Source of the DNA: an uncultured Pseudobdellovibrionaceae bacterium
Lineage (GTDB): Bacteria > Bdellovibrionota > Bdellovibrionia > Bdellovibrionales > JAGQZY01
Direction: 5' to 3'
Assembly (NCBI GenBank): GCA_964588335.1
Contig: CAZPOV010000020.1
Coordinates: 1-64,000 of the forward strand
Length of the DNA: 64,000 bases
This document shows positions 3,516 to 56,819 of this stretch, piece by piece. Positions within the stretch are counted from its first letter, which is position 1. Every line of letters begins with the position of its first letter. The notes beneath the pieces are model-generated. The model made no database searches. It saw nothing but the letters and a program-made list of their open reading frames with translations, and was not told the origin of the DNA. The translations under genes and the position numbers were made by a program.

Positions 3516-3752
3516 CTAGCTGTCTCCATCGTTGCCGATACTCTCGACGGGACATCCCTCCATGGCTTCCACACAAAGTTCTTCTTCTTCGGGGCTTTCT
3601 GGTTGCTTGATCACAAAGGCGTGGCCGTCATCTTCATCAAGAGCAAAATGATCCGGCGCTGTAAGGTTGCAGGCCGCACAGTCGATACAGGAACGGTCCA
3701 CATAATAGCGCCCGCCTATATTGTCTTCATATTTGTCGTTGATGTCGGCCAT
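3516..3752 (-). CDS. Small ferredoxin (single Fe-S cluster type)
   Basis: 78 aa and acidic, with a C-x2-C-x2-C motif (CIDCAAC) plus a distal Cys-Pro (EGCPVESI), as in small 3Fe/4Fe ferredoxins. Confidence 0.75.
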   Translation of the reverse strand: MADINDKYEDNIGGRYYVDRSCIDCAACNLTAPDHFALDEDDGHAFVIKQPESPEEEELCVEAMEGCPVESIGNDGDS

Positions 3753-3758
3753 AAGCTC

Positions 3759-4319
3759 CTATGCTCTTTCAACCAGCCACTGCTGGGCTTGCTCACGAAT
3801 AGACTGATAAACACCCGCAAAGACCACCATCCAAGCCATGGTGCTAATCAAAGTCGGCCAATAAAACAAAAGGCCTCCAACGTAGCAAGTTGTCAGGCCT
3901 GTTAAATTAAAAGGCTGGCATTGCGGGGCCTGAAAAAACCAAACGCCAAAGTTTGAAATAACAAAGAAAAGGGTGGCTGATACAGCACCCGTGCCGACAA
4001 AACCGGCGACATTCAAAAAACCTTTTTTCAGCTGGGGGTATCTCTTGGTCAGAGGCACGAAAGCCATGCCGGCCAACGAGCACCCCAATAAGGCTGCGTA
4101 ATTAAAAAGCATACCCTCGTAGAATCCTAAGAAAAAATCCGTTGCCAACCAAGCCAATGCCGGCAAAGCGAAGCCAAGAGGATTTTTACGAGCTAAGAAG
4201 CCTGCAAAGGCACAAATCGCCAGAGCCGGCCCCCAGTTGGCCGAATGAGGCATCAAACGACTGAAAAACAAGGCCACGGCCAGCACCAATAAACTTAATA
4301 ATAAAGGTTTCGTTTTCAT
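3759..4319 (-). CDS. Small polytopic membrane protein, family not recognised with confidence
   Basis: I trimmed the track ORF to the internal ATG at 4319 (MKTKPLLLSLLVLAVALFF...). It has about 5-6 hydrophobic segments. The 62 codons upstream look non-coding. Confidence 0.5.
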   Translation of the reverse strand: MKTKPLLLSLLVLAVALFFSRLMPHSANWGPALAICAFAGFLARKNPLGFALPALAWLATDFFLGFYEGMLFNYAALLGCSLAGMAFVPLTKRYPQLKKGFLNVAGFVGTGAVSATLFFVISNFGVWFFQAPQCQPFNLTGLTTCYVGGLLFYWPTLISTMAWMVVFAGVYQSIREQAQQWLVERA

Positions 4320-4479
4320 AAGAAATCTCCCAAAAACCACAATTAACACAGCCGTTGAAACCCCACAAGTAAAGGGCGGGGATATTAGGAACTTATGTTG
4401 CTGAATGCTTCGCATCAAGACCCAACATATCAGGTGAAAGGGACTATGATCTTGGAAACAGGAACCTAGGGCTGACTCA

Positions 4480-5511
4480 ATGATCAATTGGCTGGTATTT
4501 TCCACATTTGTACTCTCAATGGCGATGACAATCCTCGGGTTGCTGGTGGATTTGACTTATCAAGTTCGAGTGGCACCACAAATAGAATCGCTGCACCAGC
4601 AGCAAAGAAAAATTCTGCCCGACTACCTGGCAGACAGTAAGAAATATCACCAACATGCGGTTTTTCGCCCCAAGCTTTCTTCACGGCAGGACTTTTCCCA
4701 ACTTTTAGAAAAAATTCAACGGGGTGATTTGCAGAAGCCTCTGATTGATGAAAAAGTGAAAAAATCCATTTATTCAATGGGACCCAATTGGCTTGATCAA
4801 AAACACAAAATCCCGAAATTGGAGCCCGTGGAGTTGCTGTTTTCAGAGATTGAAGACTATGACCACTGGACGCTCCCTTTCGATCCTGACAACAATGTCG
4901 CCAGTGACTTGATCGTCGCCGACCAAATCTTTTTGGCCTGGACTTTTCACTTCCAACCGATTGCCCTCAGGCAAGCCTTAGAAAAATCAAGACACTTAAG
5001 TCGGATCCTTTTAAGCACTCAAGATTTAAATTTTCAAAGAGCAGGCCTATCTCTTCTTGAAAAAGAGAATGAACTTTTGGCATTCTTAAAATCCCGCTAT
5101 CGCAATTACCAAATTTTGTGGACGCCGGTGAGCCAGCAAGAGCTCAAAGCTTTCCGTTACCATTTGCGACAGACGGCGCGCTTCCTGAGCCCGTTAACAG
5201 AACCCAAACTTTTTCAAAAGGTTTTCTTTTCCAAACGAGTCCCCATAGCATTCTGTTCCATAGCCAAAGAAAAAATGCAGATGCTGCTATGGTCGCAAAA
5301 ATTTTTACAACCTCGTTTTCCCTTGGAACCTAACTTTTCAGAAACCATCGAAAACATTGTTAAGCTAGAGGACAAAGTGAAGACCGAGTGTCAAAATTGG
5401 AAATCTCCTCCTTCGCCTCAGGTGACGTGGTTTCAACATATTCCCTATTATCGTCGAATCTATGGCACAAAAATGATGTTCCATGCGGAAAAAAAACGAA
5501 AGATATTATGA
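4480..5511 (+). CDS. Hypothetical protein with N-terminal transmembrane anchor
   Basis: Long ORF with a TM segment at the N-terminus (VFSTFVLSMAMTILGLLV). Its stop overlaps the next gene's start (ATGA at 5508-5511), which suggests an operon with the glycosyltransferase. Confidence 0.5.
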   Translation: MINWLVFSTFVLSMAMTILGLLVDLTYQVRVAPQIESLHQQQRKILPDYLADSKKYHQHAVFRPKLSSRQDFSQLLEKIQRGDLQKPLIDEKVKKSIYSMGPNWLDQKHKIPKLEPVELLFSEIEDYDHWTLPFDPDNNVASDLIVADQIFLAWTFHFQPIALRQALEKSRHLSRILLSTQDLNFQRAGLSLLEKENELLAFLKSRYRNYQILWTPVSQQELKAFRYHLRQTARFLSPLTEPKLFQKVFFSKRVPIAFCSIAKEKMQMLLWSQKFLQPRFPLEPNFSETIENIVKLEDKVKTECQNWKSPPSPQVTWFQHIPYYRRIYGTKMMFHAEKKRKIL

Positions 5512-6626
5512 AAAAGAAGTTCTTACATATTTGCTTATCGGAAAGTTGGGGCGGCCTGGAGATGGCGGTCAGTAAATGGAATGAAATTTTACGGGAACAC
5601 GGCCATTACAATATGAATATTTGCACCCCCGACTCGCCCCTGTCGGAGGATTTGAAAATGAAAGCCCTACCGGTCAACGAATGGGTGAGCGCGCATTATT
5701 TTTCACCGGACTTCACTTGGAAACTTCGCAAATTGGTGCAGGAAAAACAGTTTGATTACGTGATGCTACAGAATCTTCGCGACCTGTGGATCGTTTCGCC
5801 AGCTCTTTACAAGACACCGAACACCCAACTGATTGGCTTTGCGCAAATGCTTTTGGGGGTTAAGAAAAAAGACTTATTGCATCGTTTGGTGTACAGCCGA
5901 CTCGATCACCTGCTCACCTTGACGGACTGGCAGGTTGAAGCCCTGAAACCCTACCTTCCGGTGCCGGCCAACAAGTATGATACGATTCCCAATTTTGTCG
6001 ACACACGGCATTTTCACCCGGCTCATCGCAGCGATAGCTTTCGCTACCAACAAGGCTTTAAATCCGAAGATTTTGTGATCGGAGTGATTGGTCGCATCGA
6101 TGAACAGAAAGGACAATTGGAGCTAGTAAAAGCCTTTCATAAAATTGCTGACAAATACCCATCGGCGCATTTGATGATTGTTGGGGAACCGACTCGGGGC
6201 GAGCCCCAGCAAGAGCAGTACTTTCAATTTATTAAAAGTCAAATTGCCAAGGTCAACCGAGAGAGTCGAATTCACTTTCGAGGATTCCAAAAAGACACCC
6301 GTAAACTGTTCGCCAATTTTGATCTGTTCGTTCTTCCCTCGCATCAAGAAACATTTGGATTTGTGGTTGTTGAGGCGATGGCCAGCGGAACTCCGGTCTT
6401 AGGAACCAATGCCGGAGGCGTTCCAGAGATTTTACAGCAGGGTGAATGTGGCTTTTTATGTGAGCCTAAAAACTCCGCCGATCTTGCTGAAAAACTGGAT
6501 TACATTTTGTCTCATACCGAAGAACGGCAAGCCACTCGTGATAAAGGCATGGCAAGAGCCCGGGCCTTCTACGATAGGCAAGCGGTTTATGGACGCTTTA
6601 TGAAAGTTCTTGAGTCTTCGAAATAA
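5508..6626 (+). CDS. Glycosyltransferase, GT4 (GT-B fold) family
   Basis: Start moved to MKKKFLHICLSESWGGLE (ATG 5508). The C-terminal half carries the typical GT4 pattern: VIGRIDEQKGQ...FDLFVLPSHQETFGFVVVEAMASGTPVLGTNAGGVPEIL. Confidence 0.85.
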   Translation: MKKKFLHICLSESWGGLEMAVSKWNEILREHGHYNMNICTPDSPLSEDLKMKALPVNEWVSAHYFSPDFTWKLRKLVQEKQFDYVMLQNLRDLWIVSPALYKTPNTQLIGFAQMLLGVKKKDLLHRLVYSRLDHLLTLTDWQVEALKPYLPVPANKYDTIPNFVDTRHFHPAHRSDSFRYQQGFKSEDFVIGVIGRIDEQKGQLELVKAFHKIADKYPSAHLMIVGEPTRGEPQQEQYFQFIKSQIAKVNRESRIHFRGFQKDTRKLFANFDLFVLPSHQETFGFVVVEAMASGTPVLGTNAGGVPEILQQGECGFLCEPKNSADLAEKLDYILSHTEERQATRDKGMARARAFYDRQAVYGRFMKVLESSK

Positions 6627-13650: not shown

Positions 13651-14148
13651 TTAAGCAGCCTGGTCGTCCGATTTATTTAAAAGAAAACGGAAGAATTTGA
13701 CTTCGCTAACATCCAATTCAGGGTCACAATCACCTTTGCAAATGCTCGACTTGTCGTAATTCAATTTGACTTGACCACCTTCGATAATAATTTCTTTACC
13801 GACATTCATCATCACGTCTTTTTCTTCGTCGCAATCTTCGCAGAAAAAAGGCACTTGCAGTGACAAAACCTCATGCTTTTCTGGCAAAAAGCCTTCCACC
13901 ATATTCATCTGCATGACAAGAGCTTTTGGGCAATTAACAAATGTAAAATTGGTATTCGGATAATTACCAAACCACATAATCCAGGCACGAATGCCTACGG
14001 AATTGATGGCAGTAACATTTTGCAAGTCGATTGCGACATCACTTGCCATATCATTTACTTCAGGAAAACTGGCTTCTTCATCAATTTGGCCACAAAACTG
14101 GTAACAAGGTTTTCCCATCATCTCGGCTTGTTTAACTTCGAACGACAT
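13651..14148 (-). CDS. STAS-domain (anti-sigma-antagonist-like) protein with C-terminal four-Cys extension (paralogue A1)
   Basis: Colinear with SpoIIAA/RsbV: F-C-G-Q-I-D, then AIDLQNVTAINSVGIRAW, which keeps the phosphorylatable Ser of D-S-x-G, then MNMVEGF. It then continues with VPFFCEDC...CKGDC...FFRFL. Two paralogues lie at 51703 and 53395. Confidence 0.75.
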   Translation of the reverse strand: MSFEVKQAEMMGKPCYQFCGQIDEEASFPEVNDMASDVAIDLQNVTAINSVGIRAWIMWFGNYPNTNFTFVNCPKALVMQMNMVEGFLPEKHEVLSLQVPFFCEDCDEEKDVMMNVGKEIIIEGGQVKLNYDKSSICKGDCDPELDVSEVKFFRFLLNKSDDQAA

Positions 14149-14149
14149 A

Positions 14150-14893
14150 TTAAGACTCCTTAGCCTCTATTATAATCAAACTTTTATTCATTTCAACGCG
14201 GTCTTCGTGATGAGCCGTTCTTGGCATCCAAACCAAGACCAACGTGCCTTTACCTGGATCGACCGTGATGGCCATTCCCACGCCCAAAGTGTAGATCAAA
14301 TAACTCCCAATACCAGCACCCATTCCTTCGTCTTTTTTGATGGCATTCTTAACCCCTTTATCAAAACAGCGCTGCATATTATTGAGCATCTGTTTGGGGT
14401 CGAGAGTACCGAAAAAATCGCGGCAATATATCACCACTGTTTCATCGTTGGCATCAATTCCAAATCGCATTGATTTCGAATGATCTGGTGCTGTTTTAGT
14501 GAAGTTGGTAAATAACTCGTCAGCTATTAGAAAGATATCATCGCGCACGCGTCGATACTTGCTAGATTTCAAAAACTGCTCCACTTGAGCTAAAAAATCC
14601 TTTTTGCTGGAGTGACCAAAAAACTTTTGCTGAAATCGCATACTAATATCTTCTGTGATTTCAATAAGACATTCACCGGGATTATTTAAAAATTTGTTAA
14701 TATCATCTTTAATTTTTACGACACGAAACTCATCAAAGCCGTTCGTGACGACTTGGATGGGAGCGTTCGAAACAGCCATATTCACTGCATCTCCGGGACG
14801 AATATCGGACCCGACCACGATCTTGTCGCGCAACGGACCATGGGCGTCTTTCACGTAGTCTTTTAGATATACGACTTTTTTATCATTGCTCAT
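14150..14893 (-). CDS. GHKL ATPase / RsbW-SpoIIAB-like serine kinase-like protein with unrecognised ~110-aa N-terminal region (paralogue B1)
   Basis: N-box-like ADELFTNFTKTAP, CRDFFGTLD (G1-like) and EGMGAGIGSYLIY (G2-like), in the order expected for anti-sigma-factor kinases. A paralogue lies at 53893..54717. The start overlaps the PP2C stop (TGATG). Confidence 0.6.
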   Translation of the reverse strand: MSNDKKVVYLKDYVKDAHGPLRDKIVVGSDIRPGDAVNMAVSNAPIQVVTNGFDEFRVVKIKDDINKFLNNPGECLIEITEDISMRFQQKFFGHSSKKDFLAQVEQFLKSSKYRRVRDDIFLIADELFTNFTKTAPDHSKSMRFGIDANDETVVIYCRDFFGTLDPKQMLNNMQRCFDKGVKNAIKKDEGMGAGIGSYLIYTLGVGMAITVDPGKGTLVLVWMPRTAHHEDRVEMNKSLIIIEAKES

Positions 14894-16710
14894 CAGGCGG
14901 CCACCTTTTGCTTCTCAAATTCAACTACTACTAGCGTCACATCATCATCGAGAGGTGTCTCTTTTCTAAATTCATTCAATTCCCCAAATACGCTGTTCAC
15001 TGTGGCATCAACATTTTGCACGTTGATCTGCCCTAACGACTTCAAAAAACGTCGCTCTCCCCAATTTTCTCCTTCAGGGCTTTTAACATCAACAATTCCA
15101 TCTGTGTAAAACACAATTCTGTCACCCTCTTCGACATTCATCGTATAGTTTGAGTATTCGGAGTCTGGACTCTCACCCAACCGAGGATTGTTGATTTCCA
15201 TCAAGGGATAGTAGTCCCGCCGCTTGGGTTTGCCCTCAACTTCATGACTCAAGAAAAAGGGCGGATCGTGTGAGGCGTTGGAATAAGTTAAAGTATTGTC
15301 ATCTAAATCAAAACAAGCGAGGAAGAAAGTCATCATCATTTCTCCCTTTGAGGTGGAATAAATCGCTTTATTCAGCATCGACAAAGCAGTACCGGGAGTT
15401 ATATCCGGAATCCCCTCAATCACCGAGGCCACGGCTCGCGCAGCGCTTGTTAAAAGGGCCGCCGGCACACCGTGCCCAGTGGCATCGCCAATCCATAGAT
15501 AAACTTTATTGTCGACATGACTATAGTGCCACCAATCACCACCACATTCTGAAGCTGGGACAGAATCGCCATAGATGTTGAAGGGTCCTATCTTGGCATC
15601 GTTCTTGGGAAACAACGTATCCTGCACAGTTTGGGCAGTCTGTAACTCGGCTTCCATTCGGGCGTTCTCAGCTGTCTTATCCAGTAACCTTGAAACTTCT
15701 TCTGTCATTTTGTTAAAGCTTTTTGCTAAAACACCAATCTCATCACCTGATTTTTCTTCAACACGCACGCTGAAATCACCATCCATGACCTTACTCGTGG
15801 CCTCCGCCAACCCACGTAAGGCACTGGTGAGTGTATTGGAGGCGAAAACTCCAATAATAATCAGAAAACAAAGAATCAAAGCTGTAAAAACCACCGAGCG
15901 CTGCATGAGCTTGCGAACCGCACTCAATGCCTTTTCTTTATTAACCAAAGACACCACATAGAGATGGGCCTTACCAACTTTCGAATAGGATGTTAGGTAG
16001 GTCGTGTCACCAAAATTAGCTTCTTTGGTTCCTTCGTGAAATTTATTATTAAAAACATTGTTATCAAGATACTTGGGAAGGTTTTTGTGCTGCAGATCAC
16101 CGGCCACAAATCCACGCAGAGAGTGGAACAACAATGACTGATCGCCATCTCCTTGACCAAAAAGTGCAAAAAAGTTTGCATTCTCGACCAGCAAAACACT
16201 GAGTCCTTTGAAATTGGCCGAATCGGCTTTGGCGATAAGATAAAAATGCATGGGGTGATCTTTGGAGACTCCCACTGTAAAACCGGTGTACCAGGCTTCC
16301 TGCATCAACGTATCCAATTTCGATTTTTCAACTGAGCTAAAGTTTAACCCTTTCGAGATACTAAATTCTTCATTGAACGATTTGCCATTCCAGGTGAAAC
16401 TTTTGAAAGCCTTCAAATCCGCCTCTGAAGAGAAGTAAGTTCTACCATTGTTAGACATGTTTCTTGATGACGGATCGAAATTGGAATTGATGGCTTTTAA
16501 AGATTGGATATAACTATTAAGCTGTGAATCCACTGTCGAGGCCTTAGCCCGTGTCGATGACAATGTCGAATCGTATACATAAGCCAACTTGTCGTCTTCA
16601 AACAAGCTTGTCGCCATAACCACAATAAGACTGATCGCCAGTATTGGCAGCGTCGATAAGACGATGAGAATCTTATTTTTAATAGAAAGCGATTTCAAAC
16701 TTAGTGTCAT
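14893..16710 (-). CDS. Membrane sensor phosphatase: two TM segments + periplasmic domain + HAMP + PP2C/SpoIIE domain (RsbU-like)
   Basis: TM1 is ILIVLSTLPILAISLIVVMA and TM2 is VFTALILCFLIIIGVFA. HAMP region: ALRGLAEATSKVMDGDFSVRVEEKSGDEIGVLAKSFNKM. SpoIIE/PP2C motifs: CGGDWWHY, GDATGHGVPAALLTS, FYTDGIVD, DDVTLVVV. Confidence 0.9.
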   Translation of the reverse strand: MTLSLKSLSIKNKILIVLSTLPILAISLIVVMATSLFEDDKLAYVYDSTLSSTRAKASTVDSQLNSYIQSLKAINSNFDPSSRNMSNNGRTYFSSEADLKAFKSFTWNGKSFNEEFSISKGLNFSSVEKSKLDTLMQEAWYTGFTVGVSKDHPMHFYLIAKADSANFKGLSVLLVENANFFALFGQGDGDQSLLFHSLRGFVAGDLQHKNLPKYLDNNVFNNKFHEGTKEANFGDTTYLTSYSKVGKAHLYVVSLVNKEKALSAVRKLMQRSVVFTALILCFLIIIGVFASNTLTSALRGLAEATSKVMDGDFSVRVEEKSGDEIGVLAKSFNKMTEEVSRLLDKTAENARMEAELQTAQTVQDTLFPKNDAKIGPFNIYGDSVPASECGGDWWHYSHVDNKVYLWIGDATGHGVPAALLTSAARAVASVIEGIPDITPGTALSMLNKAIYSTSKGEMMMTFFLACFDLDDNTLTYSNASHDPPFFLSHEVEGKPKRRDYYPLMEINNPRLGESPDSEYSNYTMNVEEGDRIVFYTDGIVDVKSPEGENWGERRFLKSLGQINVQNVDATVNSVFGELNEFRKETPLDDDVTLVVVEFEKQKVAA

Positions 16711-16834: not shown

Positions 16835-18706
16835 TTGAAAAGGACTCAAAACTTGGAAACATCTGATAAGTGGATAGTGGGCCTCACGGCACTCTGTGCA
16901 CTCTTGCTATTTTCATGGCTGATGTACGATATTGCCTTTTACAATCCCCTTCTCGAAGGCCAAACCCCGATTGGAAAAATCTACGAGGCACAAAATCGAG
17001 TCAAACGTAAATTTAATCGTAGTCTTATTTGGTATGCCGCTGAATCCAATGAGACAGTCTACGAGAATGATTGGATTTTTACAGGCTCACAATCTCTGGC
17101 TAAGATCCGTCTGGATTCTGGCGGGGAGATCATAATTGAGCCTGACTCTCTCATTATATTGTCACGAAAAAACGGTGTTCTTCAGTTAGATCTTCAACAT
17201 GGTCGCTTGATGGCTGACGTTAAAAGCCAAGACGTGCAGATTAACATTGTCAAAAATGGAAGTTCCGAAAAGGTTGATACCAGCCAGGGTGTGGTTCGCA
17301 TCGCACAAGACGAAGGCCGCAAACAGAAGCCTTTGATCGAAGATCTAAAATTGGATGACAATGCTGATGGCAAAATTGATGAGACCCTTAGTGATCTCGC
17401 CGATCGAAAGTATTACAAGCCCGACCCTGGATACTCTGAGATGAAAGTTAACGGCTTGTCTTTAAGTGAAAAAAATCAATTCAACTTCAAGTTGCTTAAG
17501 GGACAAAAAGCCACCGTCCGTCTTGACTGGAAAGATCCTTTCGAAAGATGGCAAAATTATGAAGCACAAGTCGGCGAGGATCCGAGTTTTTCAACAATCG
17601 TTTCACAAAAGACAGACCCAACACTAGAAGTCGACTTTCAGGTTGCCGACACTCAACAGCTGTTTTGGCGAGTGCGTGGCTTTGACGAAAATGGCGAAGC
17701 CTCGCTTTGGTCTGAGAGTCAGCCGGTGCAAGTGAATATCGAATTCTTGCAAAAGTCAGAACCGGTGCGGTTGGCGCGAAAGAAGCTGTTGTATCGCATG
17801 AACAAAAGCGAACTGGAAAAAGTCAAACCGAACAGAACCTATGATATCGATGACAAAAAACCCGTTAAAATTGAATGGGAAAAAGATCAAAAGGCTGCCG
17901 CCTACCGGGTCGAGGTCTCAGATAAAGAGGATTTCTCGAATATTATTGAGCAAAAAATTGTCGAAGACAATCAGCTGGCTCTTAAAAACATCAACCTTGG
18001 AAAAACATTTTTCAGAGTGACTCCAGAGACCAAAGACGGAGTGGCCATTGCCGAGGAAGCCGTCGGCGAAGTTCAAACTTACTTCCCTGCCCCCTCAGCG
18101 GACTCCCTTGAAACTGTCGACAAAAAAGAATTTCAAGTGTTGCAATGGGATGCGGTTCCTTATGCCCCTGGCTACCAAGTGACATATAAAACCGATAAAA
18201 ATTCCGACAAGGAAACAGTCAAGTACGTTACTGGCAACAAACTTCGTGTCGAAAATAAAACCGGTTATCTGCAGTGGAAAGTGCGGGTCATCGATCCTGA
18301 AACAAAAAAACACATGAGTTCCAATTCAAAAACCGTCGACTGGTACAACGCTGCAAAGCGTTTGGCGAGTTTACACGGCACTGGACAAGCCGGGCGTCTT
18401 TATCCAAAGATCACCCGACCTGAGCCTCGCAAAACTTTTATTTCGGTCAACAACTCGCCTCTTTTTATTGTTATGAGTTGGGAGTACGCGAAAAAGGTCG
18501 CTGCCTATGAGGTTGAAGTTTCTAAAACGCCTGAGATGAATGATCTGGTCTATAAAAAACGAGTCGATCGCCAACGCGCTGTGATCAATCAGTCTTTCCG
18601 ACCCGGTATCTATTTTATTCGAGTCCGAGCCGTGGCTGAAGATGTGACACAAGAGACATGGTCCGAGGTGGAAGTGTTTCGAGTCATCAATCGGAAAGCT
18701 CGTTAA
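16835..18706 (+). CDS. FecR-like domain protein with four Fn3-like repeats, N-terminal membrane anchor
   Basis: TTG start 7 nt after an aaggag, then a TM helix (WIVGLTALCALLLFSWLMY). The FecR-like stretch is LDSGGEIIIEPDSLIILS. It is followed by four ~75-aa repeats of pattern W-x6-8-Y-x-V/Q-V-x4-F...F/WRV, for example KIEWEKDQKAAAYRVEVSDKEDFS and VMSWEYAKKVAAYEVEVSKTPEM. Confidence 0.6.
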   Translation: MKRTQNLETSDKWIVGLTALCALLLFSWLMYDIAFYNPLLEGQTPIGKIYEAQNRVKRKFNRSLIWYAAESNETVYENDWIFTGSQSLAKIRLDSGGEIIIEPDSLIILSRKNGVLQLDLQHGRLMADVKSQDVQINIVKNGSSEKVDTSQGVVRIAQDEGRKQKPLIEDLKLDDNADGKIDETLSDLADRKYYKPDPGYSEMKVNGLSLSEKNQFNFKLLKGQKATVRLDWKDPFERWQNYEAQVGEDPSFSTIVSQKTDPTLEVDFQVADTQQLFWRVRGFDENGEASLWSESQPVQVNIEFLQKSEPVRLARKKLLYRMNKSELEKVKPNRTYDIDDKKPVKIEWEKDQKAAAYRVEVSDKEDFSNIIEQKIVEDNQLALKNINLGKTFFRVTPETKDGVAIAEEAVGEVQTYFPAPSADSLETVDKKEFQVLQWDAVPYAPGYQVTYKTDKNSDKETVKYVTGNKLRVENKTGYLQWKVRVIDPETKKHMSSNSKTVDWYNAAKRLASLHGTGQAGRLYPKITRPEPRKTFISVNNSPLFIVMSWEYAKKVAAYEVEVSKTPEMNDLVYKKRVDRQRAVINQSFRPGIYFIRVRAVAEDVTQETWSEVEVFRVINRKAR

Positions 18707-45582: not shown

Positions 45583-47481
45583 TCACTGGCTGGCTGAGCA
45601 GTAATTCATGACCTGTGCTGGGAACCGAGTGCCTTTGAGCATTTGACAAAGTTTGGATTCGGGTGGATTCGACATTTTGGCCAAAGTTTTTTGAATCATC
45701 GATTGGTACCTATCAACACATTCACCCATGGCCACGGTTTGAAAATCTTTTTGTAAGCCCTCGGGCATCATTTCAATGGATGCCAGCATATTTTGAACGG
45801 CTAATTTTTGCCGTCGACTCTTGCAGAAGGACGAATCAAAATCAGAGCGATGGGCTTCAGCGTAGACCGACAAAGCATAGCGAGGCAAATAATGATAAGT
45901 GATTTGATCGGCCATCGACAACAATGACTCGACGCCAACAGGAGCCCGTCCGATCAGCTGAAAAAGATGGTCGATACAGTTGGTGGAACCAGACTGAAGA
46001 CAGGCCTGCATGGCTTTTTCCACCCACTGACTGCGGGCTTTAATAAACTCAGGATATTTCTTTAACTGATTGAACGAGTAAATTGTGTCATCCAAGCGCT
46101 GAATCGTGTCCGCCTTAATTTCACCTTGATTGCGCCATTTCACAAGAGCCACAGTCACTTCCACCAAAGCCTCTTCCCACTGCTGGTTTCGCTTTTGGGG
46201 ATCCACGGTTTTTAATGTTTGTAAGGCTTCTTGCCAATTCTCCTGGCTGATCAGGACTTGCACTTGACTCATGGTTCTGACTTTTGAAGTTTGATACCAT
46301 TGACTGTAGCCCATCCAAATTGACTGAGCCACAAACAGACCGACCAACAGAGCCATGGCGGCCCAGCGCCAAGAACTGCTTTTAAGGGATGTCGCCCGGG
46401 CCTTGTTGCCGCCGGCCCCTGGCAGCGCTCCCACCGGTACAGAATCGGAGATCACGAACTCTGTGTCTTCATCCGTGACCCCATTCATGTATATTTTTGC
46501 TTGTGATAAAAGGTTTTGCAGCTTTTCTTTTTCTTTGTCTATTTCTGTTGTGAACTGAGATTCAATCCATGTTTTCACTACTGGCACCACAGAATGCCCT
46601 TCACAAAGTCGAGTCGACTCTTGATAGACTTCTTCACGAAACTCATCGATGTTTGGGTATCGATCCTGGGGATTATGTTCTAAGGCTTTTAAAATAATTC
46701 GACTCAAGTTTTCTGAACATTCTGGGTTGAACTCTCTTGGATCTTTAATTTCAAACTCTTTTAATTTTTTTAGGTACTCGGCACTGCTATGGGCCGCAAA
46801 AAGTTTTTGGTTGGCCACCATGTTCCATAAAACAACGCCCAAGGAAAATATATCGGTACGGCAATCAATGCTTTCACTGGCATTGGCTTGCTCTGGAGAC
46901 ATATAAAAAGGTTTGCCTTTTAAGACTCCATGACCGGTGTGAGACAGGTTGTTGGCGACCTTGGCGATACCAAAATCAAGAATTTTTACCTCAGAACTAA
47001 AGCTTAACATGATATTGTGAGGCGATATGTCGCGGTGGATGATATTCAACGATTCCCCGGTCAGCTTGTCTTTCATGTTGTGAGCGTAATACAAGCCCTT
47101 TGCTACCTCATGGGCGACGAATAAAGCCACCGACAAAGGAATTTTCTCTCCCCGTTCATTGAGCTCCGACCAAATTTCATTGATGGTTTTTCCATAGACG
47201 TATTCCAGTTCGATGTACTCTCCCGAATTGCCATAGGAATTCAAGTGGACGATATTGGGATGATTCATTCGGGCTGAGACTTTAATTTCATCTAAAAACA
47301 TACTGCGAATCTGCGGATCACGCTGAATCATGGAGTGACTTTTTTTAATCACAACCAAACGTGAAACAGGATCCCGAGTGATTGCACGGAACACTTCAGC
47401 CATGCCGCCACTGCCACACCGATCGAGCAAAAGGTAGTCCTCATACTCGCAGGGAAATATGTTTTTCATAGTGAAATTCAT
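45583..47481 (-). CDS. Hanks-type serine/threonine protein kinase with TM segment and helical extracytoplasmic C-terminal domain
   Basis: G-loop GSGGMAEVFRA, catalytic loop HRDISPHNIML, DFGIAK, YMSPEQ. The TM segment is WRWAAMALLVGLFVAQSIWMGY. Confidence 0.9.
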   Translation of the reverse strand: MNFTMKNIFPCEYEDYLLLDRCGSGGMAEVFRAITRDPVSRLVVIKKSHSMIQRDPQIRSMFLDEIKVSARMNHPNIVHLNSYGNSGEYIELEYVYGKTINEIWSELNERGEKIPLSVALFVAHEVAKGLYYAHNMKDKLTGESLNIIHRDISPHNIMLSFSSEVKILDFGIAKVANNLSHTGHGVLKGKPFYMSPEQANASESIDCRTDIFSLGVVLWNMVANQKLFAAHSSAEYLKKLKEFEIKDPREFNPECSENLSRIILKALEHNPQDRYPNIDEFREEVYQESTRLCEGHSVVPVVKTWIESQFTTEIDKEKEKLQNLLSQAKIYMNGVTDEDTEFVISDSVPVGALPGAGGNKARATSLKSSSWRWAAMALLVGLFVAQSIWMGYSQWYQTSKVRTMSQVQVLISQENWQEALQTLKTVDPQKRNQQWEEALVEVTVALVKWRNQGEIKADTIQRLDDTIYSFNQLKKYPEFIKARSQWVEKAMQACLQSGSTNCIDHLFQLIGRAPVGVESLLSMADQITYHYLPRYALSVYAEAHRSDFDSSFCKSRRQKLAVQNMLASIEMMPEGLQKDFQTVAMGECVDRYQSMIQKTLAKMSNPPESKLCQMLKGTRFPAQVMNYCSASQ

Positions 47482-51702: not shown

Positions 51703-52203
51703 ATGGATTTTTCCTACAAAACAAAAGCCGAAGGCTCCACCGTTGAACTGCATCTTATTGGCTACTTCGATGAATTTGCGAAACTCCCTTCTCATGAAGA
51801 CTTTTCCGAATACTCGAAAGTGATTATTGATTTTAGTGCTGTGGAGTTTATCAACTCCGGTGGAATAAAGGTTTGGCTGGGTTTTTCGGACAATATTGGC
51901 CTGATCGATACTCTCACCTCTGAAATGCGCGGTTGCCGACGTTTTGTTGTTGACCAGGTCAACATGATTGAAGGCTTTGTACCTAAAAATGGTAAAGTCA
52001 CTTCTGTTTACGTTCCTATTTTCTGTGACAAATGCGAAATGAGCTATGATGTTCATCAACCCATAGCCACTTTGGATAAAGACTTTCCCGATGTCTTCGA
52101 CAAAGTGAAGCCGGATAATTGCAAAGAGTTCCCCAAGTGTCGAAAATATTTCGAACTGGATATCGTTAAAAATAGTTACTTTCGATTTCTTGATAGCGAA
52201 TAA
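51703..52203 (+). CDS. STAS-domain protein with C-terminal four-Cys extension (paralogue A2)
   Basis: Aligns with A1 and A3: IIDFSAVEFINSGGIKVW, VNMIEGFVPKNGKVTSVYVPIFCDKC, CKEFPKC...YFRFL. This paralogy shows the + strand ORF is the real one, not the antisense 51697..52227. Confidence 0.7.
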   Translation: MDFSYKTKAEGSTVELHLIGYFDEFAKLPSHEDFSEYSKVIIDFSAVEFINSGGIKVWLGFSDNIGLIDTLTSEMRGCRRFVVDQVNMIEGFVPKNGKVTSVYVPIFCDKCEMSYDVHQPIATLDKDFPDVFDKVKPDNCKEFPKCRKYFELDIVKNSYFRFLDSE

Positions 52204-52411
52204 ATCTGGCTCTGTGTTTCCATTCAACTTTATTTTTAGAAGTGTCTGGCTTTGATTCTCGCGCCTTGTTTATCGAACGACTCAAAAAGAGAAATTTGAC
52301 TCAACCCTTAAAACCCTCTCAAGTCTGGCCATCAACTTGAAAATTCATGGAATTTGGCATTCAATAGAAGACTAGGCATTTATTGACTTTATAAATGAAG
52401 GGTTCCCGTCA

Positions 52412-53398
52412 ATGGCTTTCGCAGTGAAATTACTTGGTGTCCGTGGCACTCTCCCCACTCCGTTGACTCCGTCACAACGAGACGACAAAATCAAACAAGC
52501 CATACAGGCCTTTATAGCGTCTCCTCAAGCCTCGGTTTTTGAAGTCCAAGAATTCATGAAAGACTACCCAGCACACCTTAGGGGCGGCTACGGAGGCCAT
52601 ACCTCCTGCGTCCAAATTTCCTCGAAAAGCGAGCAACTGATTATTGATTGCGGCACTGGTCTGAGCCAATTGGTTCCTGAACTCGCTAACACTGAATTCA
52701 AAGAAGGGAAAGGGCAAATCCATATCTTAATGACACACTTTCATTGGGATCACCTGATGGGACTTCTCACCTTTTTCCCCCTTTTTATCAAAGGCAATAA
52801 GATTCATTTCTATGCCGTTCAGCCTGAGCTTGCGCAAGTTATAAAAGCCATTTTTCAAAAGCCCTTCTTTCCTGTTCCGTTTGAAAGTCTGGGAGGGACT
52901 CTGTACTTCCATCAACTCAGTCCGCGTGAACCTCGACCTATCAATGGATTTAACATTACACCTTATCAATTGGACCATCCAGACCCTTGCTGGGGCTTTC
53001 GAGTGGAAAAAGATGGGGCCGTCTATTCCCACTGTGTTGACACAGAAGGGGTCAGACTGACTCCTGAAGAGCTGGGCCCAGACCTACCACTCTATCAGAA
53101 TGTCGACCTGATGCTATTTGACTCCCAATACACCATGCAAGAGATCACTGAAAAGGTGAACTGGGGTCACGCTACGGCCAACTTTGGAATTGATCTCGCC
53201 CTGACTCAAAATATACGTAAGATACTCTTTGCCCACCACGATCCTTTTGCCAGTGATTCTAAAATCAAAGAGACGAGCGTGCAGGTGCAGCACTACTATG
53301 AAAGCATGTGTCGAATGTACAAAAAGAACAATATACCCTTCAATGATGTGGAATGGGACATTGCTCGCGAAGGCATGAGAATTGAGGTCAAAGTATGA
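52412..53398 (+). CDS. MBL-fold metallo-hydrolase
   Basis: HxHxDH motif in ILMTHFHWDHLMG. Further ligand candidates are LDHPDP, CVDTEG and FAHHDP. The N-terminal LGVRGTLPTP...GGHTSCVQI pattern occurs in a widespread uncharacterised MBL subfamily. Confidence 0.9.
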   Translation: MAFAVKLLGVRGTLPTPLTPSQRDDKIKQAIQAFIASPQASVFEVQEFMKDYPAHLRGGYGGHTSCVQISSKSEQLIIDCGTGLSQLVPELANTEFKEGKGQIHILMTHFHWDHLMGLLTFFPLFIKGNKIHFYAVQPELAQVIKAIFQKPFFPVPFESLGGTLYFHQLSPREPRPINGFNITPYQLDHPDPCWGFRVEKDGAVYSHCVDTEGVRLTPEELGPDLPLYQNVDLMLFDSQYTMQEITEKVNWGHATANFGIDLALTQNIRKILFAHHDPFASDSKIKETSVQVQHYYESMCRMYKKNNIPFNDVEWDIAREGMRIEVKV

Positions 53399-53892
53399 GC
53401 GAATTCACAAGTAAATATGCGCCTGATCAAAACGAGGATATGGTTTTCTTTTTTTCGGGCATTATCGACAGCAGAGCTCAGTTGCCAAACTTGGACGATA
53501 GCGAAGATTCGATTATTCGCATCGACCTTGGCGACTTGAAAATGATGAACTCTGGCGGCATTCGAGAATGGATTTTATGGATAGAAAAATATAAAAACAA
53601 AAGCTTTTCTTTTTATCGGATTCCCACTTTCTTCACAAACCATCTGCAATTGGTCGAAAATTTGATACCGACAGACAGCAACATTGCTTCTTTCTTTGTG
53701 CCCTATTTCTGCCCTCAATGCGATACAGACAACGACCTTCTGTTTTTTCGCGATAAAGAATTCACCAATAGCGGTGAGGTGGTTTTATTAGTCAAAGCAC
53801 AATGTGCTGACTGCAAAGTTCCCATGGAACCGAGTATTCGCGCTGATCGGTTTTTTAGAGCTCTGAAACTGCGCCCACCCCAAGTTTGGTGA
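53395..53892 (+). CDS. STAS-domain protein with C-terminal four-Cys extension (paralogue A3)
   Basis: RIDLGDLKMMNSGGIREW, LQLVENLIPTDSNIASFFVPYFCPQC, CADC...RFFRAL. Its start overlaps the MBL stop (ATGA at 53395-53398). Confidence 0.7.
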   Translation: MSEFTSKYAPDQNEDMVFFFSGIIDSRAQLPNLDDSEDSIIRIDLGDLKMMNSGGIREWILWIEKYKNKSFSFYRIPTFFTNHLQLVENLIPTDSNIASFFVPYFCPQCDTDNDLLFFRDKEFTNSGEVVLLVKAQCADCKVPMEPSIRADRFFRALKLRPPQVW

Positions 53893-54717
53893 TCAGGTGG
53901 AAGGCGAATGTAAGTGGATGTGCCGACTGACTTGTGAATCAATGGTGCGAGCCGATTTAGGGCAAAGCACCGAGGTGATCAAAGTCTGCTCGCCTTCTAA
54001 AACCCCCAGGTAAAAACTGGTACTCAGGTTATAGATGAGATAAGCTCCAATTCCAGCCCCACCTTCACCTTGATTCATCATTTGACGAGCGCCTTCGCGA
54101 TAGCAACGGGCAATTCTATCAAGATATTTTTTCATATCCAAGGAACCATAAAAATCACGACATGAAATGACCGTACGTTGGTCTTTAAACCCGATGATTA
54201 TTTCACCACCCTTGTCTTCAGGCAAAACGATCTTTTGGGTGCGATCAATCAGCTTCCCTTGTCCAACAAAAGGAGCATTGTAAATGACGTTGGTAAAAAG
54301 CTCATCAATGATTAACTGAGAACGCTCTAAAATAACTCGGGGTCCACCGCCGGACTGTTTAATAGCCTCTAGGGCTTTACTCAAAACCATCTGTTTTTGG
54401 TCGGAACGGTGGAATGGAATTCGACACAAAGTCATCCGCTGATTGGATTCCTCTTGCACAGACTCAGGTGACAGCACTGTAGCGACGGGAAATTTAAAGT
54501 AGTTATCGGGATTTTTCAACATTTCGACACCCGAGCTAAGCTCTTCGTCGAAGTACATTAAATTTTTATTCACAACATGGGGAACTTGGTGATCGAGAAA
54601 CAGGCGAAGTGTATCGTGTGTATCGACCTCTTCAGTGACATAGACCTTTTCGCTTCCACGTTCTGGTTGTTTATCTTTGTTGAAATGAATTATGAGGTCC
54701 TTGTTGGAGTCTGCCAT
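53893..54717 (-). CDS. GHKL ATPase / anti-sigma-factor-kinase-like protein (paralogue B2)
   Basis: IIDELFTNVIYNAP, ISCRDFYGSLD and EGGAGIGAYLIY align with B1 (14150..14893). The ~130-aa N-terminal region is not similar to that of B1. Confidence 0.6.
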   Translation of the reverse strand: MADSNKDLIIHFNKDKQPERGSEKVYVTEEVDTHDTLRLFLDHQVPHVVNKNLMYFDEELSSGVEMLKNPDNYFKFPVATVLSPESVQEESNQRMTLCRIPFHRSDQKQMVLSKALEAIKQSGGGPRVILERSQLIIDELFTNVIYNAPFVGQGKLIDRTQKIVLPEDKGGEIIIGFKDQRTVISCRDFYGSLDMKKYLDRIARCYREGARQMMNQGEGGAGIGAYLIYNLSTSFYLGVLEGEQTLITSVLCPKSARTIDSQVSRHIHLHSPST

Positions 54718-54966: not shown

Positions 54967-55977
54967 TTAATAGCGCCAACGGTTCGCCAAACCGACCAAG
55001 CTCAACATCACTGGAACTTCGATGAGCACACCCACCACAGTCGCTAACGAGGCACCGGAATTCAGTCCAAACAAAGATATGGCAACAGCCACCGCCAGTT
55101 CAAAGAAATTACTAGCACCAATCATCGAGCCAGGTGATAAAATCCTGTGGGGCAATCGCATTTTCCGGCCTAAAAACCAAGTGACGAAGAAGATCACGTA
55201 GGTCTGTAATATCAAAGGGATCGCAATTAAAATGATATCAAACGGCGAACCCAAAATCGTCGCGCCCTGAAAAGCAAAGATTAAAACTAAGGTGGATAAT
55301 AGTGCCACCATTGAAAGGGGCTTCAAGGTTGGTAAAAATCGCTCCTTAAACCAAACCTCACCGTATTTTAATATTAATAAGCGATTGGAAATCACTCCAG
55401 CAGCCAAGGGAATAACCACAAAAACCACCACTGAGTAAAATAAAGTGGAAAATGGAATGCGAATGTCAGTCATTCCCAACAGAAGCTGAACAATGGGAAC
55501 AAAGGCAAACAAAAGCACAAGGTCGTTCACCGAAACCTGCACCAATGTGTACTCGGGGTCACCCTGGGTCAAATAAGACCAGACAAAGACCATGGCCGTG
55601 CAAGGGGCCGCTCCTAAGAGGATGGCGCCCGCCATATACTGTTCGGCCATTTCGGGTGAAAGAATTGAGGCAAACAAATGGTCAAAGAAGATCCAAGCAA
55701 AAAATGCCATCGAAAAAGGCTTGATCAGCCAATTGATAAAAAGAGTCAGCCAAAGACCTTTTGGATTCTTACCAACATCCTTGATGGAACCAAAGTCAAT
55801 TTGCACCATCATCGGATAAATCATAAACCAAACCAAAACCGCCACTGGTAAATTGACAGTTCCGAGGTTCATTTGACTCAAGGGTTGAATGGAGTCACCG
55901 AAAATCGACCCCAGCAGTATCCCTAAAACAATACAGCCGGTCACCCAAACCGTTAAATATCTCTCAAAAAAACCCAC
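54967..55977 (-). CDS. acr3: Arsenite efflux transporter, ACR3 family
   Basis: The N-terminal FERYLTVWV and the ACR3 signature LGAAPCTAMVFVW are present, in a 10-TM layout. Confidence 0.95.
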   Translation of the reverse strand: MGFFERYLTVWVTGCIVLGILLGSIFGDSIQPLSQMNLGTVNLPVAVLVWFMIYPMMVQIDFGSIKDVGKNPKGLWLTLFINWLIKPFSMAFFAWIFFDHLFASILSPEMAEQYMAGAILLGAAPCTAMVFVWSYLTQGDPEYTLVQVSVNDLVLLFAFVPIVQLLLGMTDIRIPFSTLFYSVVVFVVIPLAAGVISNRLLILKYGEVWFKERFLPTLKPLSMVALLSTLVLIFAFQGATILGSPFDIILIAIPLILQTYVIFFVTWFLGRKMRLPHRILSPGSMIGASNFFELAVAVAISLFGLNSGASLATVVGVLIEVPVMLSLVGLANRWRY

Positions 55978-55989
55978 ACGTCTCCCCGA

Positions 55990-56412
55990 TCAGTCTTCGA
56001 TGTATTTTTCTATATTAACCACAAAATTTTTAATCTGATCGCGCACGCGCCGATACTCCTGTAGGACGCTCTCCTCGTCGGTCAATTTCTTGGTCAAACC
56101 AGGCGGATCGTCGAATCCGACATGAATGATACGGCTTCCGGGAAATGTCGGACAGGTTTGGTCAGCATCGGAGCAGACCGTAAAAACCACATCCAAAGGT
56201 TCATTACGAAATTCAGCGATTGTTTTTGATCGATGTTGGGAGATATCGATACCGACCTCGGCCATCACTTGAACCGCCCTCGGATTCAAACCATGGGCAT
56301 GAGTGCCTGCTGAGTGAAACCGGTATGATGTCCCCAGCAAAGATTTTCCCCACCCTTCCGCGATTTGCGAACGGCAGGAATTACCAGTACAAAGAAAAAG
56401 GATATTTTTCAT
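55990..56412 (-). CDS. arsC: Arsenate reductase, thioredoxin-coupled LMW-PTP type
   Basis: Colinear with S. aureus pI258 ArsC: LCTGNSCRSQIAEGWGK (P-loop, Cys10), VCSDADQTCP (Cys82/Cys89), GFDDP. Confidence 0.95.
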   Translation of the reverse strand: MKNILFLCTGNSCRSQIAEGWGKSLLGTSYRFHSAGTHAHGLNPRAVQVMAEVGIDISQHRSKTIAEFRNEPLDVVFTVCSDADQTCPTFPGSRIIHVGFDDPPGLTKKLTDEESVLQEYRRVRDQIKNFVVNIEKYIED

Positions 56413-56819
56413 GAGTTCTCCAAAAAGTTATCTAGAATGGGACAGTCACTTAAAAGCACACTCTCTTCAACGCAGCAACTGGCGATGCTTTTTAAAGACT
56501 TCTTGATTCTTTTCAGGTCCTTAATTTTAGCTTCTACTTCTTGCATCTTTTGACTGGTTTTGCTGAGGACATCACTGCATCTTGCCTGGCTTTTTATTCT
56601 AATATTCAGCAATTCTTTGGCCTCTTTTAAAGTAAAACCCAGCTCTTGGCAGCGCTTGATAAAGCGGATGCGCTGAATATCAGATTCGGGATATTGACGA
56701 AAAGCTCCGGTTTTTCGAGGCTGCTTTAATAATCCCCGTCTCTCGTAAAAGCGGATGGTTTCGACATTGACGGAGGCCTGTTTAGCGAGTTTTCCTATGG
56801 TCAATTTCTGTGAGTTCAT
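56409..56819 (-). CDS. MerR-family regulator closely resembling Hg(II)-MerR (all three metal-ligand Cys positions conserved)
   Basis: [26 protein letters not shown] matches Tn21/Tn501 MerR [26 protein letters not shown] (recalled from memory). Cys residues in ARCSDV, ASCCVE and SDCPIL correspond to MerR C82, C117 and C126. The stop overlaps the arsC start by 4 nt. Confidence 0.9.
   Translation of the reverse strand: [136 protein letters not shown]

Follow-up and report, generated by a model that had tools for sequence, protein, structure and literature searches.

An uncultured Pseudobdellovibrionaceae bacterium (GCA_964588335.1) carries a locus that raises a question: what is a metallo-β-lactamase (MBL)-fold hydrolase doing among genes that resemble those of a partner-switching module, at the place where a PP2C phosphatase would be expected? 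The locus (locus 2) lies in the first 64,000 nucleotides of contig CAZPOV010000020.1, the whole stretch of DNA analysed here, which we call the window. It comprises two genes for proteins with a STAS domain and a Cys-rich ribbon (A2 and A3), one gene for a GHKL kinase-like protein (B2) and the gene for the hydrolase (MBL); a second locus of the window (locus 1) comprises a PP2C gene and the paralogues B1 and A1. The original prediction had suggested for MBL the role of phosphatase or of signal input. Our analysis leads to another reading, in which A3 and MBL may form a functional pair: a switch would set the state of A3, and A3 would modulate the enzyme. By analogy with known STAS-controlled enzymes we lean towards this reading, granting it slightly less than an even chance. 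The evidence that carries it is an MBL-A gene pair conserved across species, and the features of locus 2 in which this pair is embedded are as follows.

51703..52203, + strand: A2, a divergent A-family paralogue with STAS domain and Cys-rich ribbon, 166 amino acids (aa) (open reading frame; A-family hidden Markov model (HMM), 4e-48)
51853-51864, + strand: N-S-G-G loop of A2 (Ser52), by motif; the cysteine motifs of A2 are Cys108/111 and Cys140/146
52204..52411, + strand: A2-MBL spacer, 208 bp (sequence, and blastn against locus L012 of the sister genome)
52412..53398, + strand: MBL, a predicted MBL-fold binuclear metallo-hydrolase of the ElaC/PhnP/YhfI phosphodiesterase type, 328 aa (Pfam Lactamase_B_2, AlphaFold2 (AF2) model, Foldseek)
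52736-52753, + strand: HFHWDH motif of MBL, residues 109-114
52970-52993, + strand: LDHPDPCW motif of MBL
53033-53047, + strand: CVDTE motif of MBL
53159-53170, + strand: NWGH motif of MBL
53231-53245, + strand: AHHDP motif of MBL
53395..53398, + strand: ATGA, the MBL stop codon overlapping the A3 start codon (sequence)
53395..53892, + strand: A3, the MBL-linked A subtype with STAS domain and Cys4 ribbon, 165 aa (open reading frame; A-family HMM, 7e-46)
53548-53559, + strand: N-S-G-G loop of A3 (Ser53), by motif; the cysteine motifs of A3 are Cys106/109/137/140
53893..54717, - strand: B2, a predicted SpoIIAB/RsbW-like GHKL protein with a family-specific N-terminal domain, 274 aa (B-family HMM, 4e-101)
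54289-54306, - strand: N-box DELFTN of B2, by motif
54139-54159, - strand: G1 box RDFYGSL of B2, by motif
54046-54063, - strand: G2 box GGAGIG of B2, by motif

All four genes stand in the open reading frame listing of the window where the original prediction had placed them; the ATGA overlap, the HFHWDH motif and the TGATCA junction (53890-53895), formed by the abutting stop codons of the convergent A3 and B2 genes, were likewise confirmed in the sequence. Because a 208-bp spacer lies between A2 and MBL and sets A2 apart, MBL and A3 are the sole tightly coupled pair of the locus. The 3′ 129 bp of this spacer are 84% identical to the sister genome (blastn against L012), and the spacer is probably the promoter or leader site of the MBL-A3 operon. 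Both A proteins had been described as STAS-Cys4 proteins. This holds for A3, but in A2 the second cysteine pair (C140/C146) is spaced Cx5C and not CxxC. The sister genome (GCA_041259715.1) has the same arrangement with proteins 82-87% identical, and synteny at this level of identity tells little on function.

The pairing of MBL with A extends well beyond these two genomes. In an MBL-centred sample of 80 species loci, 71 of which had enough downstream sequence, an A gene lay directly downstream of MBL in 10 of the 71, and L050 was an eleventh, incomplete case. The pair is also present in the sister genome and in L010/L011, where the two genes overlap by 4 bp; in the linked loci the A frame opens before the MBL stop codon or at most 31 bp past it. 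On the MBL tree, the pair occurs in several deep branches (a clade in which 9 of 11 members have it, the window's clade, and L085), but the clade of Bdellovibrio sensu stricto lacks it. It sits in at least six unrelated flanking contexts, and none of the other neighbours of MBL is conserved family-wide. The MBL-linked A proteins cluster apart from the PP2C-linked ones, their tree parallels that of MBL, and all of them have kept the serine and both CxxC pairs. We conclude that MBL followed by A is an operon of old standing that selection has retained in a minority (∼14%) of lineages, and that locus 2 is a composite of this conserved operon pair with two additions particular to this lineage, the convergent B2 and the upstream A2. 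Co-occurrence of MBL with STAS and GHKL genes, which had been proposed as a check, was thus found for STAS in that minority of lineages, but not for GHKL.

Two kinds of candidate were rejected during this survey. Among the stop-to-stop open reading frames of L015, MBL and A seem to be fused; this is a frame artefact, the genome being GC-rich, and the true genes overlap as TGATG. In L059, L060 and L069 an A gene lies ∼2 kb upstream of MBL with a convergent acyl-CoA carboxylase gene in between, so that there is no operon.

What kind of enzyme, then, is paired with A? MBL matches Lactamase_B_2 (PF12706) with 7e-16 and 58.8 bits against a cut-off of 27. Its homologues at ∼50% identity number more than 1,100, and those that carry a name come from Bdellovibrionales, Bdellovibrionota and Oligoflexia; when species genomes were scanned, at least 583 of them had a relative, that of the cultured Bdellovibrio bacteriovorus included. 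The metal-site residues H109, H111, D113, H114, H189, D210, H253 and D277 do not vary among 38 homologues, and H276 hardly does. The AF2 model has a pLDDT (predicted local distance difference test) of 90, and its closest solved structures by Foldseek are YhfI, the B. anthracis ElaC homologue BA1088, PhnP-family enzymes and RNase Z; when the sequence profile was compared with the PDB, E. coli RNase BN/Z was the best match (6.8e-8), with PhnP and BA1088 also at the top. Against the NCBIfam equivalogs MBL scored 48.7-53.8 bits for RNase Z (cut-offs 252-293), 37.7 for PhnP (cut-off 272) and 35.3 for cyc_nuc_deg_phdiest (cut-off 400). Sequence and fold comparison did not separate RNase-Z-like, PhnP-like and cyclic nucleoside monophosphate (cNMP) phosphodiesterase-like substrates. 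From sequence and model, MBL is predicted to be a phosphodiesterase-type enzyme, and nothing points to a protein phosphatase; its substrate would be a phosphodiester, namely RNA or a nucleotide, cyclic or linear. The fold data agree with the other activity that had been suggested for it, that of a (cyclic) nucleotide phosphodiesterase.

MBL shares the family PF12706 and the binuclear HxHxDH site with YhfI, BA1088, Rv1339, CpdA, PhnP and RNase Z/BN, but is only 12-18% identical to them and ∼80 aa longer, the AF2 model showing a helical insertion (residues 20-51) and a long C-terminal helix (282-305). To our knowledge, none of these enzymes is paired with a STAS protein. Three MBL residues, 98, 299 and 303 (nt ∼52703, 53306 and 53318), tend to be hydrophobic in A-linked enzymes versus K/R/Q in A-less ones, a comparison that phylogeny confounds. 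These positions, which lie partly on the long C-terminal helix, could be a candidate A-binding surface; the window's own MBL has E98. Among the characterised relatives, YhfI prefers cAMP and cGMP as substrates (PMC9117128), and YhfI-type PF12706 enzymes have been classed as 'atypical class-II' cyclic-nucleotide phosphodiesterases (PMC9293780).

The partner protein belongs to a very large family. A1, A2 and A3 are ∼32% identical to one another and share invariant N-S-x-G and CxxC motifs. Word-indexed homologue searches with A3 and B2 matched the sister genome alone; an exhaustive profile search returned 3,899 A clusters (50% identity) at E ≤ 1e-3 and 2,248 at E ≤ 1e-10. Aligning 52 members showed G22, N52, S53, G55, S99, C106 and C109 (A3 numbering) to be invariant, and N-S-x-G is present in 52/52 members, in A1, A2 and A3 and in every MBL-linked A. 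We take this loop to occupy the position of the D-S-S-G loop of SpoIIAA/RsbV, where the phospho-serine sits. The profile built from the 52 sequences matched MlaB (5.6e-4), TM1442 (1.2e-3), RsbV (0.03) and SpoIIAA (0.17) in the PDB, and its C-terminal part matched zinc-ribbon and zinc-finger proteins. These matches argue for a STAS fold, extended to A2 and A3 through their homology to the family, and the conserved Ser is the predicted phosphorylatable residue of a partner-switching antagonist, which such proteins carry in the loop that precedes helix 2 of STAS; the earlier view of A as a STAS-like protein thus gained support from the family profile and, as to its conserved serine, from the invariant loop. 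The Pfam thresholds for STAS (PF01740) and STAS_2 were not reached, A2 scoring 17.0 bits (E 0.005; cut-off 22.6) and A1 and A3 giving no match, and one family member, P0126, lies just above the STAS cut-off with 22.9 bits. On the A tree, A1 is nearest the PP2C/B-linked A proteins and A2 groups with the A3 clade. Elsewhere, an A2-like protein (P0128, L174) has neither MBL nor B beside it.

B1 and B2 are 37% identical across the C-terminal 120 aa (E 2e-21). Their N-terminal halves had been noted to differ and, compared with each other, are indeed not significantly similar; both nevertheless align to one N-terminal domain that is found family-wide. In 18 diverse B proteins the invariant residues, the initiator Met aside, are E139, N143, D188, G191, G220, G222 and G224 (B2 numbering), a set that by sequence corresponds to the N, G1 and G2 boxes of a predicted GHKL ATP site. 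The threshold of HATPase_c_2 (PF13581) was not reached: B1 scored 17 bits (cut-off 27.4), B2 gave no match, and 3 of the 18 members matched weakly. A natural B-A fusion, P0258, was modelled with AF2 at a mean pLDDT of 89 and a pTM (predicted template modelling score) of 0.74. Its top Foldseek matches in the PDB were SpoIIAB structures (1til, 1tid, 1th8 and 1l0o; target TM 0.73-0.76), RsbW 6m37 gave a target TM of 0.71-0.73, and the STAS domains of YchM and MlaB came further down the list. The modelled Bergerat (GHKL) fold and the N, G1 and G2 boxes are those of a partner-switching kinase, and B is accordingly predicted from the model to be a kinase like SpoIIAB/RsbW that carries an additional domain at its N-terminus; its earlier assignment as GHKL-like is upheld by these matches and by the intact ATP-binding motifs. 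Together, A and B make up a large partner-switching family that has no Pfam or NCBIfam model and for which public sources carry no useful names. Regulators of the slr1658/slr1659 superfamily gave weak NCBIfam matches; A and B are not members of it, and we found no functional literature on it.

Compared with its relatives, how unusual is locus 2? Locus 1 provides the reference within the window.

14893..16710, - strand: PP2C, a predicted membrane-anchored HAMP-SpoIIE phosphatase, 605 aa (Pfam SpoIIE 1.2e-37, HAMP 6e-13)
14150..14893, - strand: B1, GHKL kinase-like paralogue, 247 aa (weak HATPase_c_2 match, E 0.006; family alignment)
13651..14148, - strand: A1, canonical STAS + Cys4 protein, 165 aa (open reading frame, motifs)
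13993-14004, - strand: N-S-V-G loop of A1, by motif

For a wider comparison, 80 metagenome loci centred on A genes were scanned with A, B, PP2C and MBL HMMs. These loci were retrieved by A1-headed alignment patterns, the 52-sequence A alignment being too diverse, so that A1-type genes are over-sampled. Arrangements were counted where 3.2 kb or more of sequence precedes A, which is so in 31 loci.

PP2C, then B, then A: 13 of 31 loci
PP2C, then A: 10 of 31 loci
PP2C-B fusion, then A: 4 of 31 loci (among all loci, such fusions upstream of A occur in L137, L143, L150, L162, L164 and L170)
B, then A: 1 of 31 loci
neither PP2C nor B upstream of A: 3 of 31 loci

A PP2C gene therefore lies upstream of A in 27/31 informative loci, and of the 58 loci whose sequence before A reaches 500 bp or more, 51 have B or PP2C as the gene immediately upstream. 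Among the best 150 A-family proteins, eight are A/B fusions: seven B-A (P0258, P0180, P0147, P0260, P0161, P0246 and P0179) and one A-B (P0220), the other half matching B1/B2, with E-values against B2 down to 7e-30. Since fusions occur in both orders and the PP2C-B-A operon order is conserved, A and B appear to be functionally linked, and the fusions are Rosetta-stone evidence suggesting that PP2C, B and A act jointly. Locus 1 is the canonical form of this widespread module, and locus 2 is an unusual one. The absence of PP2C from the locus 2 region, reported earlier, was borne out by the open reading frames and profile HMMs, which also gave no further A, B, PP2C or MBL paralogue in the window beyond loci 1 and 2. 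A cognate PP2C is thus lacking at locus 2 and present, as HAMP-SpoIIE, at locus 1; being the only PP2C of the window, the locus 1 enzyme is likely the phosphatase for all three A proteins. Neither locus is flanked by a sigma factor gene, as had also been noted.

Some individual loci deserve mention. The gene for the B-A fusion P0180 follows a REC gene and a PAS-HATPase gene and has no MBL beside it. In the A-centred loci L118 (6566-8581, + strand) and L125 (3778-5736, + strand), which have no upstream PP2C or B, A is followed by a ∼660-aa protein whose N-terminus resembles, by eye, a response-regulator receiver. In L109 (5-5548; metagenome contig Ga0170475_129547119) an A/B module is interleaved with cyclic di-GMP (c-di-GMP) enzymes in this order:

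5-898, + strand: B
786-1802, + strand: PAS-GGDEF protein
1864-2385, + strand: A
2382-2888, + strand: A
2922-4610, - strand, convergent: GAF-HD-GYP protein
4607-5548, - strand, convergent: B

The layout of L109, with two A genes and a convergent B, is like that of locus 2, with second-messenger enzymes instead of MBL.

These observations allow a mechanism to be proposed. B2 and/or B1 would act as kinase(s) of the A proteins, binding them and phosphorylating the N-S-x-G loop on its invariant serine, and the HAMP-PP2C of locus 1 would strip the phosphate upon an envelope signal. One phospho-state of A3 would then bind MBL and alter its activity, localisation or stability, translational coupling ensuring that the two proteins are co-produced; the phosphodiesterase would thus serve the switch not as its phosphatase but as an output, or as a partner under its control. 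A2 may be a rival of A3 for the same kinase(s), acting as competing substrate or decoy. The proposal that A3 regulates MBL rests on gene order, on the conserved serine and on three precedents of STAS or STAS-like proteins controlling enzymes, given below. In its most specific form, A3 would be a phospho-switchable regulatory subunit of a Bdellovibrionota metallo-phosphodiesterase, the PP2C-B-A family directly controlling phosphodiester hydrolysis (of a cyclic nucleotide or RNA) and not a sigma factor, with B2 as dedicated kinase and A2 as a competitor gained in this lineage; taken with all these particulars, we regard the scheme as possible and somewhat doubtful.

Known systems help to place this proposal. 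The Bacillus modules SpoIIE-SpoIIAB-SpoIIAA and RsbU-RsbW-RsbV have the same trio of a PPM/PP2C phosphatase, a small GHKL Ser kinase/anti-sigma factor and a STAS antagonist with a conserved serine, and locus 1 resembles them in holding the PP2C-kinase-STAS gene set in a single operon. They differ from the family described here, which has no associated sigma factor gene, an additional C-terminal Cys-rich ribbon in A, an additional N-terminal domain of ∼120 aa in B and scores under the Pfam STAS/HATPase_c_2 cut-offs; locus 2 differs further in having no PP2C and an MBL enzyme coupled to the STAS gene. The RsbU-RsbW-RsbV1/RsbV2 system of Chlamydia has several STAS antagonists per kinase, a PP2C that is a transmembrane sensor and no dedicated sigma gene in its loci. 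Its proteins are canonical STAS and RsbW proteins that have, unlike those described here, no zinc ribbon and no N-terminal extension, and we know of no hydrolase partner for them. In the MlaB-MlaF pair a STAS protein is the obligate partner of an enzyme: MlaB, the best profile match of the A family, consists of STAS alone, and it both binds an ATPase and regulates it; unlike A, it has no phospho-serine switch context, ribbon, kinase or phosphatase partners.

Closest in function to the proposed relation between A3 and MBL, and to L109, are two Pseudomonas systems. In HsbR-HsbA-HsbD (PMC5085249) and in SiaA-SiaB-SiaC-SiaD (PMC8457831), a phospho-switchable STAS or STAS-like protein, HsbA or SiaC, directly controls a nucleotide second-messenger enzyme, HsbD or SiaD, and not a sigma factor. 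Their enzyme is a GGDEF diguanylate cyclase, whereas here it is an MBL-fold phosphodiesterase and the pairing is proposed from gene order; SiaC and HsbA show no sequence kinship to the A family past the fold. The third precedent is HenR/All4160 of Anabaena, in which a STAS domain, itself the target of a PP2C and of kinases, regulates an enzyme directly (PMC13555669). In All4160 the STAS domain is fused to a glycosyltransferase, whereas here a separate STAS protein is translationally coupled to a hydrolase. L109, with A and B among GGDEF and HD-GYP enzymes, is in line with an enzyme output and supportive of it in spirit. Our literature search found nothing on partner-switching in Bdellovibrio nor on a STAS protein with an MBL partner, in agreement with the original prediction, which knew of no STAS/anti-sigma-kinase system of this kind.

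Several observations weigh against A3 as a regulator of MBL. No B gene lies within 8 kb of MBL in the 80 MBL-centred species loci, and a PP2C appears once among them; conversely, MBL was found in 0/80 loci of the A1-type-seeded, A-centred sample. MBL stands without an adjacent A or B in 86% of species, and its core function therefore does not need a neighbouring A. No MBL-A fusion occurs among the best 120 MBL or the best 150 A-family matches, and the folds of B2 and A3 were assigned by homology to the modelled fusion P0258. Other neighbours of MBL are RNase R, infC/thrS/rplT, greA and RNase Y, which would fit a housekeeping RNA enzyme with which A is no more than co-expressed.

The main rival explanation we consider possible, if less than probable. 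According to it, MBL is a constitutive phosphodiesterase that processes RNA or nucleotides, similar to RNase Z/BN or to PhnP/YhfI and driven by a promoter of its own, A uses the operon for expression, and A3, A2 and B2 form a second switch that is served by the locus 1 PP2C and has another target. The breadth of MBL across at least 583 species genomes at ∼50% identity, mostly with no A neighbour, its best PDB sequence match, its RNA-related neighbours and the conserved sequence of the 208-bp spacer upstream of it all agree with such a housekeeping role. A mere passenger, however, would hardly account for an MBL/A overlap or near-abutment kept in at least six flanking contexts while all other neighbours change, nor for MBL-linked A clusters that track the MBL tree, and MBL itself remains far under the RNase Z, PhnP and cNMP phosphodiesterase equivalog cut-offs.

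Two sets of MBL neighbours may be recorded here. In the largest synteny group (L017:6856-12048; also L022, L052, L066 and L093) MBL and A are followed by a co-directional RNase R gene (RNB + S1) and a UbiB/ABC1 kinase-like gene; the position of RNase R next to the pair hints at an RNA-metabolism context for MBL. In L008/L009 (7987-9861, - strand), from a close relative without the A gene, a Hanks-type Ser/Thr kinase gene converges on the MBL gene and overlaps its end.

It is unlikely, in our judgement, that MBL provides the signal input, degrading a cNMP, c-di-NMP or 2′,3′-cyclic nucleotide that A or B senses and that sets the switch state. The YhfI/Rv1339-type fold relatives are cNMP phosphodiesterases (PMC9117128, PMC9293780) and the A/B module of L109 lies amid c-di-GMP enzymes, both of which speak for such a role; yet the GHKL ATP site is the only recognisable nucleotide-binding domain in A or B, no one MBL substrate is singled out by the comparisons above, and genes so tightly coupled in translation point to a stoichiometric complex more than to a diffusible signal.

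That MBL replaces PP2C as the phospho-STAS phosphatase of a B2/A2/A3 switch, as the original prediction proposed from the missing PP2C and the coupling to A3, is very improbable in spite of its intact active site and of the recurrent MBL-A linkage across species, given that this role predicts MBL together with B and A, yet B is at none of the 80 MBL-centred loci and MBL at none of the 80 A-centred ones, where PP2C is almost always present, that the same genome has a canonical PP2C, that the nearest folds are phosphodiesterases, and that we know of no MBL-fold phospho-serine protein phosphatase.

The surroundings of the two loci complete the description. Locus 2 is flanked by a gene for a MORN-repeat membrane protein on one side and by an SBF/LMWPc/MerR cluster on the other. 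This cluster (54967-56819, - strand), next to B2, encodes a transporter resembling SBF/ACR3, an ArsC-like phosphatase of low molecular weight (PF01451 in the sister genome) and a regulator of the MerR family, and it looks like an arsenic-resistance operon with no relation to locus 2. The window's lineage also has a Pkinase gene ∼4 kb upstream of A2 (L012:2183-4072, - strand, syntenic with 45583-47481, - strand, of the window). Beside locus 1, a large FecR-domain/Ig-like protein is encoded divergently from PP2C (16835-18706, + strand), and a FecR-like protein of ∼609 aa is encoded near MBL in L001 (206-2035, + strand).

Partner-switching modules with no sigma factor are common, and their outputs are mostly not known. 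The present analysis defines a very large A/B family, with thousands of clusters, and offers an MBL-fold phosphodiesterase as a candidate output for one of its branches. An enzyme as the partner of such a switch is a category already known; the novelty would lie in partner-switching with this particular enzyme. If A3 does not regulate MBL, the window still holds a network of three antagonists, two kinases and one phosphatase that would be useful for the study of cross-talk. If it does, a nucleotide or RNA hydrolase would join the short list of enzymes under a STAS phospho-switch, next to diguanylate cyclases and a glycosyltransferase, and would provide a handle on signalling in predatory bacteria.

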